64,000 nucleotides of DNA from a virus (lineage: Duplodnaviria; Caudoviricetes), in IMG/VR virus record IMGVR_UViG_2061766007_001346, positions 96,001 through 160,000 of that record, one strand, 5' to 3'. The notes beneath the pieces were generated by a model. That model worked only from the letters and a program-made list of their open reading frames with translations. It made no database searches and was not told where the DNA came from. The translations under genes were made by a program, and so were the position numbers. Shown here piece by piece: positions 7,032 to 49,791 of the stretch; the first letter of the stretch is position 1, and each line of letters opens with the position of its first letter.

Positions 7032-9269
7032 ATGAAATACAAGTTTAAGGACGGCGGTGTCGTAAAATTGCAAAATGCGTGAACAACAATGCCCAATCCT
7101 GAAGATTCGATACGTCGTGCATGGGAAACACAGGCCCAAAGAGAAAGAGAGGCAGCCTTCACGGACTCTTTGGGCTATATTACCCAAGGCGATGGTAAGA
7201 AACGAAACGCTCTGACATGATGAGCACAGGACACTGCCAAAGGACAGGAAGCCGTACGTGCATTAAACACACTTAAATGAGCTGCCGACAAAGGTCTTAT
7301 GCTTGCCGGTGGAAACTGACTCCTAAAAGGCCTGAAGGCAAAGAAATATCTGACTACCGCTGGAGAACTTGTCGGTGGTGCTGTAGGTGCGGAAGGACTG
7401 AATCAGGCTGGAAAATGAGTAGATAATAAATTGGGAACATCCAATCCGTTCCTGGATTTCCAGAAACTAGGAACGTTGTCCGGAGTAATACTTGGTGCTT
7501 CTGGAGCAAAGAAAAGTTTGCAGTGAGCTGCCGGAAAGGGAGTCAATCTTCCCGCCAGCAATATGGAATTCAATAACTTAAGGACACAATATCTTAATAA
7601 TACTGCAGGAAGGGCAAAAATCCAGACTCCTAACAAGGGCTGGGAGAACTATTCCAACTATGATGTTTATGAGAACGCGTTCAAAAACAAACCGTCAGTC
7701 GATTTATCGGAACCGATAACAATGGATGAAGCTAAAGCTTCTGCAAGTCGGTGATTAGGTGATAGAATTCAACTTGGTGATCCAGAGATACTCAAGGATT
7801 TACAAATAGCTCCGAGCAGTACTCCAGAAACAGGATATATTGACTTCTACGATACATCGAAGCCTATAAACAAGTCGTTACGTAAGACGTTCTATGCCGC
7901 TCCTGATGGACAAGGTTATAGTTACGGCAGACCTGTAATACAAGGCGTTATGCACAGAACAGTCGATGGTACCGAATATCTGGAATATCCAAGAAACAGC
8001 AATATCAGATACTATCTCGGTAAGTTCAAAACCGAAGGAAAAGATCCTACCTTAGTACACATAGGCCCGCCAAATATGGATGGTACTGTAATGAAGCCTC
8101 GTCCGGATCCGTTACGCCGTGTCGATCAAGATTTTCTATGATGGCAGAGAAACAATCCGTTCTGGTCGAAAGGTGAAATTACCACTCGAATAAACGATGT
8201 GGTCCCGTCCAAATCAGCAATCGGAAACGTCAATTCAGACTATCCAACTCGATTGACAGGTGCAGTGGACTTAGCAGATCCGAAGCTAAATACCGTACAG
8301 ATGCAATACAATCCACTAACCAAAACGTTTGGTTGGATGAAGTATGTGGTTCCCAAGGAATTCGAACCTACACCACAAGAAGCGGCGACAACATATCACT
8401 GAGATCCGCGGGCGAAAGTAATGAGCAGACCGATAAGCGATGCTGAATTAGCCGGAACACCTAGAGGTGAGAGAAATCAACCGGCACCAAGACATCACAT
8501 TCCGATATCGTTAATCAATAGGTCGAATTCATACTTGCCGATTGAAGGCGACAGTTTCGCTCTCGAATCACCAGAAGTATCGAAACGTCTTGCTTCGGTT
8601 CACTTTACCATAAACGAACCTGTAACTGGAAACAGCGGCGGTAGTTGAGATTCAGCATCCACCACCCTCTTATTCCCGTATGGGAATCTTCGAAAAGTTG
8701 CCGCACCGATAAATCTGGAACCAATGGATACGTTCTTCCCGAACTATAATGGTTTGCGTTTCAGTACGAAGGGCGCAAAAGTCTTTACTGGAGATAGAGC
8801 GGTACACGATTATTACACACAGCACGGTGTAGATTCGAAGTTCTCGGAGGAACTGGAAGCGTTGCTTAGAGAATATAACGCGAAGAATGGTGTTGCTGAT
8901 AAATATCTTGCCGAACACGATTGGCTTCCGGATGAAGAATACTATAAATTACATAAGGCTGAAACAGATGTGTCTGATAAAATTCAGCAAATGCATTTCG
9001 ATTTTGTAGACCAGAATGCGGAACGTCCGTCTCTTGAAGATGTTCATAGATTAGAACAGATTGAAGGATTAAAAACCGGTGCGGATCCGGTTAGGTATGA
9101 TGGTATGGCTACAGACTTACAAAGAAGACTGGGATATACATGATTCAGTGCCCCATCTACACACTGGGCGTTAACTATGTACGAACCCGGAGAAGATCTT
9201 TCAAAGTTGCCGAAAGGAATGCAAGATTTCGTGAGATGAATATGGGCGCACAAAGCCGACTATAGATAA
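7032..9269 (+). CDS. Large hypothetical (virion cargo-like) protein, 745 aa (TGA=Trp)
   Basis: ORF fragments 7563, 7950, 8199, 8421 and 8724 all share one frame, separated by TGA; ATG 7032 to TAA 9267. Confidence 0.8.
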
Positions 9270-14812: not shown

Positions 14813-15152
14813 CGCAAGCGAAGCAAACATGTGCAGATTCATCAACATCAATCTCGAACAGAGATTAAGAAAAACGATCAGTTTTCAAGAACTTGTTGAA
14901 TTTGGGGCTCCGTGGTGGTTCCGTCTTGTTGTAGGTGAACAACTCACCGTTGGTTATCGAGATGATTCAGAAGTTAAGATTGTGTGGAAAGGTTCTATAT
15001 ACACAATTTCTTCCCAACACAGTCTTGCCAAACAACTGTCCAAATTTGACGTTGGATCAACTGTAAAGGTTGTTGAACGTACAACGGAACGGTACAAGCA
15101 TGATGACAAAACGTGGATGCGATTTGTTCACAAGTTTGAAATCGTAAAGTAA
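14793..15152 (+). CDS. Hypothetical protein
   Basis: ORF overlapping the previous gene end. Confidence 0.65.
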   Translation: MTILSFNASEANMCRFININLEQRLRKTISFQELVEFGAPWWFRLVVGEQLTVGYRDDSEVKIVWKGSIYTISSQHSLAKQLSKFDVGSTVKVVERTTERYKHDDKTWMRFVHKFEIVK

Positions 15153-15173
15153 TTCCCGATTCTCTCAATTCAT

Positions 15174-15332
15174 ATGGTAGATTTGAAAGTTGGAGATAAG
15201 ATAGACTTCGTTGATACAAAACACGTTCTTATAAACGGAGTCAAACACAAAATAGTTATTAAGAAACATCCTCTCCTTACAAGGACTGGTATTATGTTTA
15301 TAGCTTATTGTGAGTTTGTAAAAGACCGCTGA
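15174..15332 (+). CDS. Small hypothetical protein (52 aa)
   Basis: MVDLKVGDKIDFVD...; its TGA stop lies within the hammerhead core. Confidence 0.45.
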   Translation: MVDLKVGDKIDFVDTKHVLINGVKHKIVIKKHPLLTRTGIMFIAYCEFVKDR

Positions 15333-15403
15333 TGAGCTAGTGAAATTCTAGCGAAACGATGCCCAAGTAGGCGAAAGCTGAGCACTTGGGTTTAAGTCCG
15401 GTC
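15324..15403 (+). ncRNA. Type I hammerhead ribozyme
   Basis: GACCG-CUGAUGA-GCUAG(UGAAAUU)CUAGC-GAAAC-...-GUC^CGGUC; stem I GACCG/CGGUC; distal stem III GCCCAAGU/ACUUGGGU. Confidence 0.8.
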
Positions 15404-15452
15404 ATATGATCGAAACATTAACTCATTTATTAACATCTAATTTAAAAGCCTT

Positions 15453-15845
15453 ATGGAAATTTTCGCAAAGGAAGGCTGGGGTATCCTCGCCGTGTCTGCC
15501 AAACTCAACATCAACGACCAGATCATTCTGTGTCAGGTTCTTGACAATCTTGATCGTTTCGACGGTTTCGTCGAGAAGATCGACGCGTGGGACAAAGAGG
15601 CAGAATGTCACACGCTCCAGGAGCTTAATGAAGAGACTGGCTGTTGGGAGCCGTCTCAGTGGGCCAAGGACAATCCTCGTCCTGGTGACCCGATGGAAGA
15701 AGCTCACAAGATGGGCTTCGATCCAATGGAAGAGCAGCGGAAACTGCGCAAGTTCTGCCGTAAGCTCTGCCATATCAAGCTTGGTGAGAGCAACATCTTC
15801 GACGATGAGGCCCAAGAGGCCAAAGTCGAGAAGGTCGCAAAGTAA
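15453..15845 (+). CDS. Hypothetical protein
   Basis: ORF with strong codon bias. Confidence 0.75.
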   Translation: MEIFAKEGWGILAVSAKLNINDQIILCQVLDNLDRFDGFVEKIDAWDKEAECHTLQELNEETGCWEPSQWAKDNPRPGDPMEEAHKMGFDPMEEQRKLRKFCRKLCHIKLGESNIFDDEAQEAKVEKVAK

Positions 15846-15851
15846 CAATCT

Positions 15852-16076
15852 ATGGCACACGTTGTCACACTCTCAGAACAGCTGGAAACCGTCACACAGG
15901 CAATCCGGCCTCTCATCGATCGCCAAGAAGGCGATGACCCCGAAGGAGCAAACGGCCAGTGCAAAGCTGCAATAGCCGAATGCGAAGCTCTCGTAGCCAT
16001 GCTCAACGAAGTGAAATCACAGATTGAGTATGAGATTCTTGAACAGTGCCCAACTCCAGATCCTTACTGGGATTAG
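15852..16076 (+). CDS. Hypothetical protein
   Basis: ORF, tight packing. Confidence 0.65.
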   Translation: MAHVVTLSEQLETVTQAIRPLIDRQEGDDPEGANGQCKAAIAECEALVAMLNEVKSQIEYEILEQCPTPDPYWD

Positions 16077-16079
16077 CCT

Positions 16080-16415
16080 ATGTTACCAACATCAACTCAA
16101 CACAAGTCACCCGAGCTTCTCGTGAGTCTGCGTGTCTGCGAGACAAGCGCCGATAAAGTGAGAAATGCTCGCACCGTTCCTATGTACGAACTCACCATCA
16201 AGGATATGGGTGGTGAGTTTCCGCGTGCAGGCATCAAGGTGTGGTTGGACGGCAAAGTCATCAACGACTACGAGCTGTCTATCTTCGCCTCGCCTGGTAA
16301 AACTATGACGGTCGACAACTTGGTAGATCTTGCCAAGCGACTGGTTCGTGAGTTTAAAGCCGATCCTGCCAATCTTGACAGATATCAGGACTGGCAAGAA
16401 CGTTACATTCCTTAG
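16080..16415 (+). CDS. Hypothetical protein
   Basis: ORF, tight packing. Confidence 0.7.
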   Translation: MLPTSTQHKSPELLVSLRVCETSADKVRNARTVPMYELTIKDMGGEFPRAGIKVWLDGKVINDYELSIFASPGKTMTVDNLVDLAKRLVREFKADPANLDRYQDWQERYIP

Positions 16416-16539
16416 TATTAAGAGCACGTACACAACAGCTCCTCTATAAATGGGGCGCCTTCGCGGTGGGGCGATATACGAACCGACGCACCTGTGCGTT
16501 TAAAACAGGATATGTCAAACACTAATAACTAATTGTTCT

Positions 16540-17088
16540 ATGGCAAAGAACATTGAAGAGGTCGTGAAAGAGGCCTCTAAGGATGTCATTTTCGACTTCA
16601 AGCAGGTTGGGGAGAAACCTGAGGAATTCTCCGAGTGGCTCGAATGTGGCGAGAAGGGTATTCCCTTCGAGTTCTTCGATGGCGAGATCATCACGCTGCC
16701 GCCCTTCGACAAGATCCGGATCTGGGGTCGTCGTGAGAAGATTGGGAAGAAGACCTTCCCGATTCTCTACACTGCGATCGAGTCCGATCGTCAGGGTGCG
16801 ATCGAGATGCCTCTCTCTATCCTGAGACGCATGCCTGCCCTCAAAGATGAGATTTCCAAGCTTATGGAGGGCAATGTGCTGGGAGCACCGCTTCTGTCCA
16901 AGATGTCCGACATCAAGCGTCTGGCCAAACTCTCTCAGCTTGCTGGCGAGGGCATGATCCGCGTCACTGACGCTCCGTTCCACACCAACGACTTCGACCA
17001 GAATGGCAAGGTCATCCGTGACAGTGCCGAGAAGCCTGAGTCGGAACGTCGTCCGCTGATGTGTCACCGGTTCAACCTCGCTTCCTAG
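16540..17088 (+). CDS. Highly expressed hypothetical protein, paralog of 17198-17866
   Basis: Strong C/T-ending codon bias; shared MAKN, FDF, LSxLxR and RLAKL motifs. Confidence 0.8.
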   Translation: MAKNIEEVVKEASKDVIFDFKQVGEKPEEFSEWLECGEKGIPFEFFDGEIITLPPFDKIRIWGRREKIGKKTFPILYTAIESDRQGAIEMPLSILRRMPALKDEISKLMEGNVLGAPLLSKMSDIKRLAKLSQLAGEGMIRVTDAPFHTNDFDQNGKVIRDSAEKPESERRPLMCHRFNLAS

Positions 17089-17108: not shown

Positions 17109-17140
17109 AAGCCCCGTCAAAAACGGGGCTTTTCTTTTTC
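17109..17140 (+). terminator. Intrinsic terminator
   Basis: AAGCCCCGT-CAAAA-ACGGGGCTT followed by TTCTTTT. Confidence 0.8.
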
Positions 17141-17197: not shown

Positions 17198-17866
17198 ATG
17201 GCAAAAAACGTTACTATCAGCGGCGCCATTCCTGAGATGTATCAGGAGGCACAGCGCCCCTCGGAGTCTTTCGACTTCGACGAATTGAAAGGCGTAGGTG
17301 AGCCTTTCGGTGGATTCCTCACTCAGCAGGGTGACATCTGGCAGTTTGCTTCTCTCGAAGCGTATAAGACTCGTCCGGAACTCCGTCGCAAGCAGCGTGT
17401 CCAGCGTGACCTGCGTACTGGCGAGAAGCCTCGCTATGCGTTCTTCGTTCTGGCCACGCGTACCCGCGGTGGTGTCACCACTAACGAGTGGTTCTCTCTG
17501 AGCTTCCTCAGCCGCACCGATTCCGACCAGCGTCCTGTCAACGAGAGCTGGTACAAGGCCGGTGGCCACGAAGCCCGTCTGGCGAAACTCTGCGAAATGG
17601 GTGCGATCAAGGTCCTCGACGACCTGAAGATTCGCGTTCCTGTCTTCCAGGGTGGCCGTCCCAACCGCGTTCCGACGCTCGATCCTATCACCAAGGAACA
17701 GCTCGTCGACCAGTACGGCACCGCCGTCACTCACGTCGAGACGAGAGAGCAAGATGCGCATCATGTCACTCCGGTCGGAGGCGTAGTCGCAGAACTCGCC
17801 GCTGCCGCACCGGCTGACAATGCCGCTCCGGTCGAGGCCGCGGCTCCCGCCGCTCCGCAGGCGTAA
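17198..17866 (+). CDS. Highly expressed hypothetical protein with Ala/Pro tail
   Basis: Extreme codon bias; paralog of 16540-17088. Confidence 0.8.
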   Translation: MAKNVTISGAIPEMYQEAQRPSESFDFDELKGVGEPFGGFLTQQGDIWQFASLEAYKTRPELRRKQRVQRDLRTGEKPRYAFFVLATRTRGGVTTNEWFSLSFLSRTDSDQRPVNESWYKAGGHEARLAKLCEMGAIKVLDDLKIRVPVFQGGRPNRVPTLDPITKEQLVDQYGTAVTHVETREQDAHHVTPVGGVVAELAAAAPADNAAPVEAAAPAAPQA

Positions 17867-17869
17867 TGA

Positions 17870-19105
17870 AGCAGTGATTTCCTAATTGTGTCACCGTGTA
17901 TGGATTCATGCATGGTGGCACAATTAAATCACCTTCGGGTACGTTCTCACCAGATAACTGAGATATGTATCCAGACGCTCGCGGATTCTGGCTTCTAAAC
18001 CTAGACAGGAATTTAATCTTCGGATTCATTCCTTATAGGTAACACACGACTTAAAGAGACTTGTGGCTGTCTCATCGGGGGTGATGCCTATTCCCCCATC
18101 CTTTTTTAAGGCATCGAAAGACCAGATAGATGCGTAGCCGTATCATACGGATTATATATGACCTGGTTGTCACTAGCGAATCATTTCTCGCGACGTGAAG
18201 GAACACCGATCCTTGGCGAAAACAGCCTAAATTCAGGCGTGGATGACACACGTAAACTGGTCAGTCCATCCTGGCTTAATAGGGATAGTCTTGGGGAAAC
18301 GAACTGACGGACCAGACTTAAAACTTCCCAACATCGAGCGGCTCTCAAATTATGAGAGGGAGACTCACGCAAAAACATCCAGTAGAGCCCGCAGAAGAAA
18401 GGCTGTCCGTCCCTATACGCTGAGGTTTGACGGTCTGAAGGGGTGAAAATGGCAGTAAACCCTACACAACGGTGACGCCTAGTCCGTTCAATCTTTTAAC
18501 ACTGGTTAGTTAATCCAAGCCTGTATGGTATCATGCTACAGGATCGCTTCAACGAAAGTCTGGTATAAAGTGAAGTTAAATAATCTGGTCCAGAGGGTGT
18601 GGTTGGGCACCAATCCTATGCATCACAAAATATACGCGTGTGTTTTATGGTGCTATGCTAGTATACCGAGAACGTTTCCAATCAAAACGCTTATCGGACA
18701 CGTTTTTTTAGCAGGACTCCCACGGCTACTATTGAAGCCATGAGCTGAATCCTCAAACCTGGTAGGAAGGTAAAAGAGTGAGTTTTGGTGTAAGTGATTC
18801 ACTCATAGCACATCTATCCACGCACAGACTGCCAGGTTTTCCTTGAACACATTATTTTCAGTTTCATTTTTGTGCTAGGACAATCCTAGTAGTGGTTTGG
18901 TATCCCTCAACCTAGTATTGAGCAGTATATTCCACATTAAAAAAGCATCCCAAAAGGGCCCTATCCAATCTCAGGAGACCTGACAGTCTTCTGAGGTTCT
19001 ACGAGTTGGTGTTTTGACATAATTAAACTGCCTTTGCTATTCCGTATTGCTGTGAAGTACTATGGAAGAAAATAAAGCCCTGTGAATAACGGGGCTTTAT
19101 CTTTT
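17870..19105 (+). ncRNA. Large structured non-coding RNA locus (one or several RNAs), unassigned
   Basis: No credible ORF in code 11 or code 4; about 20 stem-loops with G-U pairs and UUCG loops; ends in terminator ATAAAGCCCTGT...ACGGGGCTTTAT-CTTTT. Confidence 0.65.
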
Positions 19106-19382
19106 CAAAACATTGTTTATCAATGCGTTGGCAGTGTGTGAGATTGGACACTCAATCTCTTCCTTGTTTCCTAACACTCAACTTACCTCTCAAAAATGCC
19201 GAAAATATTGCCTTTCTGTACGTACATTATAAAAAATGCAAAAAACTTTTGTTTTTAACATTTTTATTACTATTTTTGCACATTCTTGCAACATTTTGTA
19301 TGATTTTGCATCAATAATGATAAATAATGTATACTGAATGGTTATTATACTAGTGCACTATCTTATTAATACACTAATTAAC

Positions 19383-19586
19383 ATGCAAACTCGTGGACTT
19401 AATGTCATCAGAACCATACAGGTTGAGGTGACAAACAAGAAAGGTGAGACGAAGATGGAGAAAAGACATCGTCTGTTTCACGTGCGTGTAAACGCAGGCG
19501 TACCAAGTGATCATCGTATGCTGACAACAGAATATCCTGCTGTTTTGGCGTACATGAAGTACAAGAATGAAGGTTCCGACAGTTAA
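19383..19586 (+). CDS. Hypothetical protein
   Basis: ORF after an AT-rich leader. Confidence 0.55.
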   Translation: MQTRGLNVIRTIQVEVTNKKGETKMEKRHRLFHVRVNAGVPSDHRMLTTEYPAVLAYMKYKNEGSDS

Positions 19587-24298: not shown

Positions 24299-24691
24299 GG
24301 GCCTGTTCTGGTTTTGACCTATAACGTATTAATATTGACTTATGCAGGTAAATGTGCGCCAGTACCTTATAAGATGCGTGCAAACTATTAAATGCCAATA
24401 ACACTAATAGCAGAATTCGCAACAAGGTTGTCGATCTGCGCAGCATGTTTGGCCAGTCTCCGTTCACTGTACGGATGGCTGCTTAGTTTTCTTTGTAGTT
24501 CGTAAAACAAAGTGGTGGAGGTGAGCTTAGCTCACACCGATGCTGAGAACCGAGAGAAACTCAGGGAAGAAATCTCTCAATGAGTGATAGTGGAACCTAG
24601 CTCAATAAATACATGGTTATCCTAAGCATATAAATAAAGTCAATGTGGGTATTTTATAGACACAGCGGTTCGACTCCGCTCAGGTCCACCA
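24299..24691 (+). ncRNA. ssrA: tmRNA
   Basis: 5' GGGCCUG-UUCUGGUUUUGAC; 3' T-arm AGCGG-UUCGACU-CCGCU and CAGGUCC-ACCA with G3-U70; tag ORF 24394-24486 ANNTNSRIRNKVVDLRSMFGQSPFTVRMAA. Confidence 0.9.
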
Positions 24692-49707: not shown

Positions 49708-49778
49708 CGGATTGTCAGTTAATGGTAGGCTAGCGGTCTTCAAAACCGCCTGTCAGGGTTCGAGTCCTTGCAATCCGG
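49708..49778 (+). tRNA. Opal suppressor tRNA (anticodon TCA, probably Trp)
   Basis: Acceptor CGGATTG/CAATCCG, G73; anticodon arm GCGGT-CTTCAAA-ACCGC; short variable loop, so not tRNA-Sec. Confidence 0.9.
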
Positions 49779-49791
49779 CTAAACAATTATT

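Follow-up and report, generated by a model that had tools for sequence, protein, structure and literature searches.

The locus described here occupies positions 17866 to 19105 of a phage DNA window of 64,000 nucleotides (nt), the whole stretch that was analysed, which corresponds to bases 96001-160000 of a virus record of 177,170 bp rated as complete. Two large protein genes are followed by a small third gene that can be read only if TGA specifies tryptophan (Trp), and this in turn by a stretch that runs to a terminator-like hairpin. On balance, the arrangement is probably best explained as a recoded small gene followed by a non-coding RNA island on the + strand, with a new structured RNA within it. 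The features of the locus are as follows (aa, amino acids).

16540-17088, + strand: gene for a 182-aa protein, the first of the upstream operon
17198-17866, + strand: gene for a 222-aa protein, the second of the operon
17866-18042, + strand: small gene, the third of the operon, with 58 codons and a TAA stop; it is open only when TGA is Trp
17874-17932, + strand: long hairpin (inverted repeat I1) covering codons 3-23 of the small gene
17883-17902 / 17907-17926, + strand: core of the long hairpin, a 20-bp stem, conserved and covarying
17874-17879 / 17927-17932, + strand: outer stem of the long hairpin, less well kept
18077-18116, + strand: weak terminator-like hairpin (18077-18107) with a T-run, from a pattern scan, in this phage only
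18199-18262, + strand: 5' domain, consisting of AGGAACACCGATCC, hairpin Pa, CCTAAATTCAGG and hairpin Pb
18215-18217 / 18225-18227, + strand: hairpin Pa of the 5' domain, of variable length
18237-18241 / 18249-18253, + strand: hairpin Pb of the 5' domain
18199-18485, + strand: core domain with a proposed closing helix, AGGAACACCG (18199-18208) / CGGTGACGCCT (18470-18480), from the RNAalifold consensus
18520-18611, + strand: three-hairpin block (18520-18542; 18559-18563 / 18590-18594; 18596-18600 / 18607-18611)
18755-18839, + strand: 3' domain, in which an outer helix of 11 bp encloses an inner stem and conserved loops (TTT.GTGTAAG.GAT, CACGCAC)
18755-18765 / 18829-18839, + strand: outer helix of the 3' domain, AAACCTGGTAG/CTGCCAGGTTT
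18969-18994, + strand: 3'-tail hairpin, CTCAGGAGAC / GTCTTCTGAG, from the minimum free energy (MFE) fold; segment 18948-19043 has z -3.1
19069-19103, + strand: terminator-like hairpin of A-tract, GC stem and T-tract (inverted repeat I3, 15-nt arms)

An earlier note on this DNA had held that the stretch contains no credible open reading frame (ORF), even with read-through of TGA. Under the standard code (translation table 11) there is indeed none on either strand, but 17866-18042 proved to be a conserved gene of 58 codons once TGA was read as Trp. Its ATG overlaps the stop codon of the upstream gene (TAATG), in-frame TGA codons lie at 17875-17877 and 17959-17961 and a TGG at 17989-17991, and the translated product reads MKQWFPNCVTVYG...RGFW...IPYR. 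Relatives for comparison were collected with the 222-aa upstream protein as query, yielding 12 related metagenome clusters whose contigs were fetched; further contigs found through a nucleotide motif brought the total to about 14 distinct lineages. Two metagenome matches to the small-gene motif, L021 and L023, were set aside as chance. A protein-pattern scan of viral_contigs with the upstream protein returned no relative, and a cultured-phage collection held no match to DNA 17867-19110 or to either upstream protein. The nearest full relative, L003, served as the reference for most pairwise comparisons.

The small gene was present in all 14 lineages, with 57-75 codons, an in-frame ATG, one to three TGA codons and TAA or TAG as the stop. 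Across 12 aligned sequences, the first 150 nt past the upstream stop were conserved in a codon pattern with TGA and TGG alternating: Trp column 43 was TGA in 7 sequences and TGG in 5, and the invariant Trp column 54 was split evenly (7 and 7). Substitutions between the window and L003 fell 11/7/32 over the three codon phases (chi-square p < 0.001). BLASTP between lineages gave full-length matches with E-values of 1e-18 to 1e-36 in this frame only, those in the other frames being short and weaker. The gene is thus almost certainly a genuine recoded protein gene, and a UUCG-capped multi-stem at 17999-18040, earlier taken for non-coding RNA, sits within it.

Other accounts of the small ORF were considered. 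It was rejected as a frameshift extension of the upstream protein, as lineages differ in its frame with respect to the upstream stop and each has an in-frame ATG of its own. Three database proteins of 172-244 aa that end in the small-protein domain (P0014, P0015 and P0020) are over-calls that run out of frame across the upstream gene, with TGA read through. An intron interrupting the gene was not supported, there being no conserved second exon and no match to an intron model. A profile search of 1.84 billion proteins recovered free-standing homologues of 52-74 aa.

The AlphaFold model of the small protein has five strands and a mean predicted local distance difference test (pLDDT) score of 91.6. 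No Pfam family was matched at E <= 10 and no PHROG at E <= 0.1. Fold matches were weak and of the OB-like type (Foldseek E >= 0.5; VIA Z <= 5.6 to NigD-like, RPA and SSB barrels), and the protein is therefore tentatively called a small OB-like barrel with function unassigned.

The window contains 15 tRNA genes according to ARAGORN and 17 according to Rfam, in addition to a transfer-messenger RNA (tmRNA) and a GroEL-like gene. One of the tRNAs, at 49708-49779 (+ strand, 72 nt), has a UCA anticodon and the ARAGORN label 'SeC'. Its simplest reading is as a UGA suppressor that supports decoding of TGA as Trp. The tmRNA, at 24299-24691 (+ strand), scored 67.1 bits with Rfam, and ARAGORN predicts a tag of 30 residues. 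Recoding of stop codons in gut phages and its proposed role in late-gene timing have been described (10.1101/2021.08.26.457843, PMC10879173). The small gene resembles such recoded phage genes (TGA as Trp, table 4) in having TGA at conserved Trp positions and a tRNA(UCA) encoded by the same phage. It differs from them in being an ORF of 58 codons that comes last in an operon, behind two large genes free of TGA, and in the conserved hairpin that starts two codons past its first UGA. A genome-wide map of TGA use built from the longest ORFs was too noisy and was dropped. As this gene illustrates, a short recoded-stop gene can be mistaken for structured RNA.

The long G-U-rich stem at 17874-17932, which had been taken as part of a non-coding RNA, is a real covarying hairpin with a 20-bp core; it lies inside the protein gene. 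Among 11 distinct sequences, 91.4% of the stem cells of the core were paired, compared with 28-46% in slid controls, and five pairs changed on both sides. U-G and G-U pairs were frequent and would be A-C mismatches on the other strand. The sequence is thus constrained both as protein and as + strand RNA, and the small gene shows cleanly how a coding sequence can at once be under constraint as an RNA hairpin of 20 bp. The Trp codon just 5' of the hairpin was TGA in all nine lineages that have Trp there. This invariance is suggestive; because the lineages are related, it is not independent evidence. The hairpin may have a role in processing, either as an RNase III-type site or as a 3'-end stabiliser of the upstream mRNA, and it may gate translation of the small gene.

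Beyond the small gene, conservation was uneven. Identity to L003 was 0.80 in the two upstream protein genes, 0.78 in the 5' domain and 0.64-0.84 in the core, compared with 0.43 (unalignable) in the spacer 18043-18198, 0.55 at 18491-18670 and 0.47 beyond 18670. Structure was mapped in sliding windows by comparing consensus folding with that of column-shuffled alignments. It was detected at 18427-18665 (z -2.6 to -4.9), 18726-18841 (z -6.2) and 18948-19101 (z -3.1 to -4.7) and was not detected at 18030-18210, 18606-18784 or 18842-18990. Covariation was drawn mostly from the window, L003 and L004, with a broader sample for the 5' domain and the long hairpin only.

The 5' domain was found in six lineages (the window, L003/L004, L175, L012, L018 and L022). 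In these, 97.9% of cells were paired, five of eight pairs changed on both sides (none or one in slid controls), and one pair was G-U in five of the six sequences, which points to the + strand. A model of the domain, R1, found one copy per genome. The core that follows holds the highly conserved stretches AAAAACATCCAGTAGA, GGCTGTCCGTCCCTATAC, CTGAGGTTTGACGG, AAGGGGTGAAAATGG and CCTAGTCC, about 84% identical to L003; some 100 nt are conserved at 84% without a codon signal. The proposed closing helix is invariant and hence beyond the reach of covariation, which neither backs nor refutes it. In L018 the 5' and 3' core motifs are about 520 nt apart.

The three-hairpin block is 56% identical between the window and L003, and the differences in its stems are compensatory changes. 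Its structure conservation index (SCI) was 0.88, against 0.20 ± 0.12 for 100 column shuffles, with a consensus-energy z of -6.0; the SCI of the reverse strand was 0.66. The 3' domain, in a hand-registered alignment of the window, L003 and L004, gave an SCI of 0.81 against 0.28 ± 0.12 (z -7.15). Its outer helix, AAACCTGGTAG/CTGCCAGGTTT, had been picked out by eye from the single sequence and held up well: 8 of the 11 pairs covary, with three pair types at two of these positions, and there are three G-U pairs and no A-C. Although L003 and L004 are 96% identical over the aligned gap past the small gene, three pairs of the outer helix differ between them by compensatory change. Of two further pairings that had been proposed, CTGGTC/GACCAG is not kept in the nearest relative, and TTGGGGA/TTCCCAA does pair, with one compensatory change, as an ordinary helix and not as the suggested pseudoknot.

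Towards the end of the stretch, homology with L003 is doubtful around the 18969-18994 hairpin (identity 0.47). The final terminator had been recognised earlier and was found again as the terminator-like hairpin at 19069-19103; an equivalent hairpin ends the gap in L003, and weak Rfam matches align solely to this terminator shape. An internal terminator at 18077-18107, which had been thought capable of splitting the locus in two, is weak and has no counterpart in L003.

At least three covarying structured elements therefore lie in the non-coding + strand region and are common to the nearest relatives, and 18043-19103 probably contains a genuine conserved structured RNA. That the + strand would be the RNA strand, as had been argued from G-U pairs, is indicated by G-U pairs without A-C in the covarying helices and by forward SCI values above the reverse ones.

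The same upstream gene pair, followed by a gene-free gap of 1.0-2.4 kb, was found in every lineage with a contig long enough. The gaps of the relatives were scanned with Rfam by E-value; all matches were on the + strand and those other than tRNAs lay below the Rfam gathering scores.

L005, 8436-8823, + strand: GOLLD, full model with the family motifs aligned, 82.3 bits (gathering score 150), E ~1e-21
L005, 8976-9047, + strand: tRNA, above gathering score
L008, 7318-7369, + strand: twister-P1, E 1.8e-8
L012, 8426-8538, + strand: RAGATH-33, E 1.1e-6
L013, 7307-7365, + strand: type III hammerhead, E 4.3e-5
L176, 1964-2015, + strand: type III hammerhead, 26.5 bits, cut by the contig end
L003, 8745-8817, + strand: tRNA-Asn, above gathering score, 7 nt past the 3' domain

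On their E-values, the GOLLD (L005) and twister (L008) assignments are secure and the other sub-threshold matches probable. In L005, the variable 5' region of GOLLD may correspond to the stretch of roughly 700 nt that separates the small gene from the GOLLD match. For the gap of L005, L006 and L019, the z values of the consensus fold lay between -3 and -7.8 over about 1 kb of the + strand, those of the - strand being weaker. The tRNA of L005 (8976-9050, + strand, by ARAGORN) is odd in that no anticodon could be assigned to it by that program. In L004 the homologous RNA likewise has a tRNA-Asn within 7 nt; the gap of the window has no tRNA. The occurrence of a GOLLD-like RNA, ribozymes and tRNAs in one slot identifies the locus as an RNA-cargo island exchanged between lineages. 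In the distantly related L180 (4466-6783, TGA-recoded), the small gene lies between genes for 183-aa and 194-aa proteins, with an HTH_36/DnaD_N-like gene directly next.

No described family accounted for the RNA of the window. Rfam gave no match in the stretch at E <= 10 and none at gathering score, and the GOLLD covariance model (RF02032) likewise gave none over 17700-19400 at E <= 10. ROOL was matched neither in the window nor in the scanned loci of the relatives. There was no match at E <= 10 to RNase P or to group I or group II introns, in keeping with the absence of their hallmarks to the eye, and resemblances to RNase P, to group I P7/S and to the central domain of 16S rRNA that had been drawn by eye were dropped for this reason, the first two having also failed checks of helix order or of covariation with L003. 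Self-cleaving ribozyme families (hammerhead, twister, HDV-like) gave no match at E <= 10 in the stretch, and the hammerhead core CUGANGA is absent from both strands of 17867-19110. Neither ARAGORN nor Rfam (RF00005/RF00023) found a tRNA or tmRNA in 17867-19105, and a decayed tRNA at about 18845-18925 was rejected after BLAST of the L003 tRNA against 18831-18960 gave only 5-6-mers.

The window RNA is single-copy. Neither the complete genome of a relative (G001) nor any of the genomes representing 185,579 bacterial and archaeal species, one for each, contains it. Searches with AGGAACACCGATCC in viral_contigs and with AGGAACACCGATCCKTGG in viral_contigs and genome_contigs returned only chance matches in unrelated coding DNA. 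Complements of nine conserved motifs (up to 2 mismatches) gave no convincing antisense target elsewhere in the 177 kb genome.

GOLLD and ROOL (rumen-originating, ornate, large) are phage-borne RNAs that lie near tRNAs and have no assigned function (PMC5737381, PMC12286853). GOLLD, carried by phages or prophages and often near tRNA islands, has a conserved 3' and a variable 5' region, and both RNAs form RNA-only cages (PMC12286853). Like GOLLD, the window RNA is large, non-coding, phage-borne, on the strand of the genes, adjacent to a tRNA in relatives and without assigned function; unlike it, it measures about 640 nt, many GOLLD RNAs exceeding 800 nt. With ROOL (~581 nt) it shares size class, a phage setting in rumen or gut and, in relatives, nearby tRNAs; multistem junctions and pseudoknots are described for ROOL only. 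Phage loci with self-cleaving ribozymes or RAGATH RNAs are comparable in that relatives carry these in the corresponding gap, also on the + strand; the window stretch differs in lacking a CUGANGA core or ribozyme-family match. We regard the window RNA as new, neither GOLLD nor ROOL, and as fitting a loose kind of large structured phage RNAs near tRNA genes.

A recoded small gene followed by an RNA island could operate in the following way. The 58-aa small β-barrel protein would be made from 17866-18042 only when UGA is read as Trp. The region 18043-19103 would form the 3' part of the + strand transcript of the upstream operon, which would end at 19069-19103. Co-transcription is suggested because the 5' domain of L012 starts within the last codons of the small gene and because L003 has no terminator between small gene and RNA. 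An RNA of about 640 nt (18199-18839), comprising 5' domain, core, three hairpins and 3' domain, would then be released from the long transcript by processing, with RNase III at the long hairpin as a candidate step; in L003, where the equivalent span (8114-8738) ends 7 nt before the tRNA, cleavage by RNase P at that tRNA is another. The released phage RNA would be stable and abundant and act in the manner of GOLLD and ROOL, not as a cis-regulator. That 18199-18839 forms one RNA and not separate elements is plausible, at slightly less than even chances. A role like that of GOLLD or ROOL, suggested by analogy, is a distinctly weaker possibility.

Several observations weigh against this interpretation. 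Most of the covariation comes from only two or three of the lineages, namely the window, L003 and L004. The core, 18194-18490, folds no better than its shuffles (z 0.03 on the + strand, 1.05 on the - strand), and the pairs of the window MFE fold are kept in L003 at 26-41%, compared with about 36% for random canonical pairs. The count of compensatory pairs from RNAalifold, on two-sequence alignments, is within the range of column-shuffled ones. The unalignable spacers between islands fit an array of separate elements equally well. The non-tRNA Rfam matches in relatives are, as stated, all under gathering scores. GOLLD motifs (UCAAAAG loop, GCUCGCAAGG, GAGUAAU and CUCAGCC) are all absent from 18043-19110, and profile searches found no homology between the window RNA and the GOLLD-bearing L005 clade. 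The distant relative L180 has the small gene and no long gap. Transcript ends, processing and abundance are ones that we infer.

The picture given by the earlier note was accordingly borne out in part, both as observation and as interpretation. Its description of the stretch as almost entirely stem-loops was overstated, in view of the folding of the core. Folding energy by itself lends weak support: against shuffles, the 996 nt at 18110-19105 gave z -3.1 on the + strand and -2.7 on the - strand, from 20 shuffles only, and the core showed no excess. Covariation among homologues upheld the long hairpin, the 5' domain, the three-hairpin block and the 3' domain and not the MFE fold of the whole region. 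A new large non-coding RNA or array akin to GOLLD and ROOL is supported by the covarying helices at 18199-18262, 18520-18611 and 18755-18839, by the lack of an Rfam match and by the GOLLD-like RNA and tRNA in the slot of a sister clade; the first 177 nt are a protein gene, and the structure takes the form of islands, not of one 1.2 kb fold.

The alternative that survives best is a long 3' untranslated region (UTR) whose independent cis-acting hairpins (stabilisers, RNase III/E sites or attenuators) serve the upstream operon, with no free-standing RNA. No promoter is evident before the structured RNA, the 5' domain of L012 abuts the small gene, the structured islands stand between unconserved spacers, the core folds like its shuffles, and a strong terminator closes the unit; these points favour a UTR. 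Stabiliser hairpins, however, need neither some 100 nt of 84%-conserved sequence without codon signal nor conserved loops inside covarying stems, and in sister clades the slot houses genes for RNAs that act in trans, namely the GOLLD-like RNA, tRNAs and ribozymes. We consider a pure UTR unlikely, with perhaps the chance of an outsider.

Alternatively, the stretch may be the decaying remnant of a former RNA-cargo slot that once held, for example, a GOLLD-like RNA or tRNAs and is now a functionless leftover. The fast turnover of cargo between lineages, the absence from the window of the tRNA that L003 and L004 have past the 3' domain, and the lack of conservation at 18606-18750 and 18842-18990 are all compatible with decay. 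A remnant would not be expected to keep its helices by compensatory substitution, as is seen between the window and L003 and even between the closely similar L003 and L004, nor to be conserved in the core like the neighbouring protein genes (0.84 compared with 0.80), nor to retain a 5' domain in six lineages. Decay is thus quite improbable.

Since the first 177 nt proved to be a recoded gene, more such genes could be hidden in 18043-19103, where table 4 ORFs of 41-90 codons are present, and the conservation might then be protein-coding. Substitutions between the window and L003 lack codon phase, however (core 25/31/30, 3' part 47/48/50), as they do in the non-coding remainder of three closer pairs of relatives. 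Translated similarity between the two is equal over several frames and both strands. No long frame exists on either strand of 17867-19105, nor in the 15 syntenic gaps of relatives, under table 11 or any single stop reassignment, so that none opens in any of the 16 gaps, and the residual ORFs have no PHROG match. Further hidden genes are very improbable.

That the inverted repeats act as DNA, in a replication origin, a packaging site or a recombination hotspot, is scarcely credible, since there are no iterons or direct repeats, G-U pairs without A-C fit + strand RNA and not DNA cruciforms, and the slot of the relatives holds RNA genes, all on the + strand, even though an HTH_36/DnaD_N-like initiator gene adjoins the gap in several relatives, an AT-rich, promoter-like spacer follows directly past the terminator (GC content falling to 0.30 at 19100-19399) and the 3' domain has much the same consensus energy on either strand.

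The two large upstream proteins have no Pfam or PHROG family. They had been described as paralogs, which BLASTP between them (E 0.5) did not bear out, no paralogy being detectable. The suggestion that they might bind the RNA gained no support. The AlphaFold model of the 222-aa protein has a pLDDT of 80.5 and a fold search found no match in PDB at E <= 0.001; the model being confident, the protein may have a new fold. A strong intrinsic terminator at 17109-17131 (+ strand), between the two genes, is kept in L003 (6909-6937) and L012 (5924-5949). Because this conserved terminator precedes it, the 222-aa gene must rely either on read-through or on its own promoter, located within about 66 nt. Further upstream, a hammerhead-like core is readable at 15324-15403 (+ strand), as GACCG CUGAUGAG CUAG..CUAG CGAAAC ... 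GUC CGGUC with a long stem III; Rfam over 15000-16600 gave no match at E <= 1.

Few bacterial or phage RNAs of unassigned function are as large as GOLLD and ROOL, and there is no genetic handle on the role of these two. The related uncultured phages described here keep one slot past the same three genes and fill it differently by lineage. Such an exchange in nature suggests that the RNAs may replace one another in function, and it singles out the conserved neighbouring proteins for attention. It is conceivable, though we would rate it a long shot, that the ~640-nt RNA is a third class of large phage RNA beside GOLLD and ROOL, interchangeable with GOLLD in one slot, and that suppressor-tRNA-dependent passage of ribosomes at the invariant UGA controls processing or folding of the downstream RNA, so tying its release to the code switch. 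If so, the 182-aa, 222-aa and UGA-gated small OB-like proteins of the operon would be the first candidate partners or regulators for RNAs of this kind.

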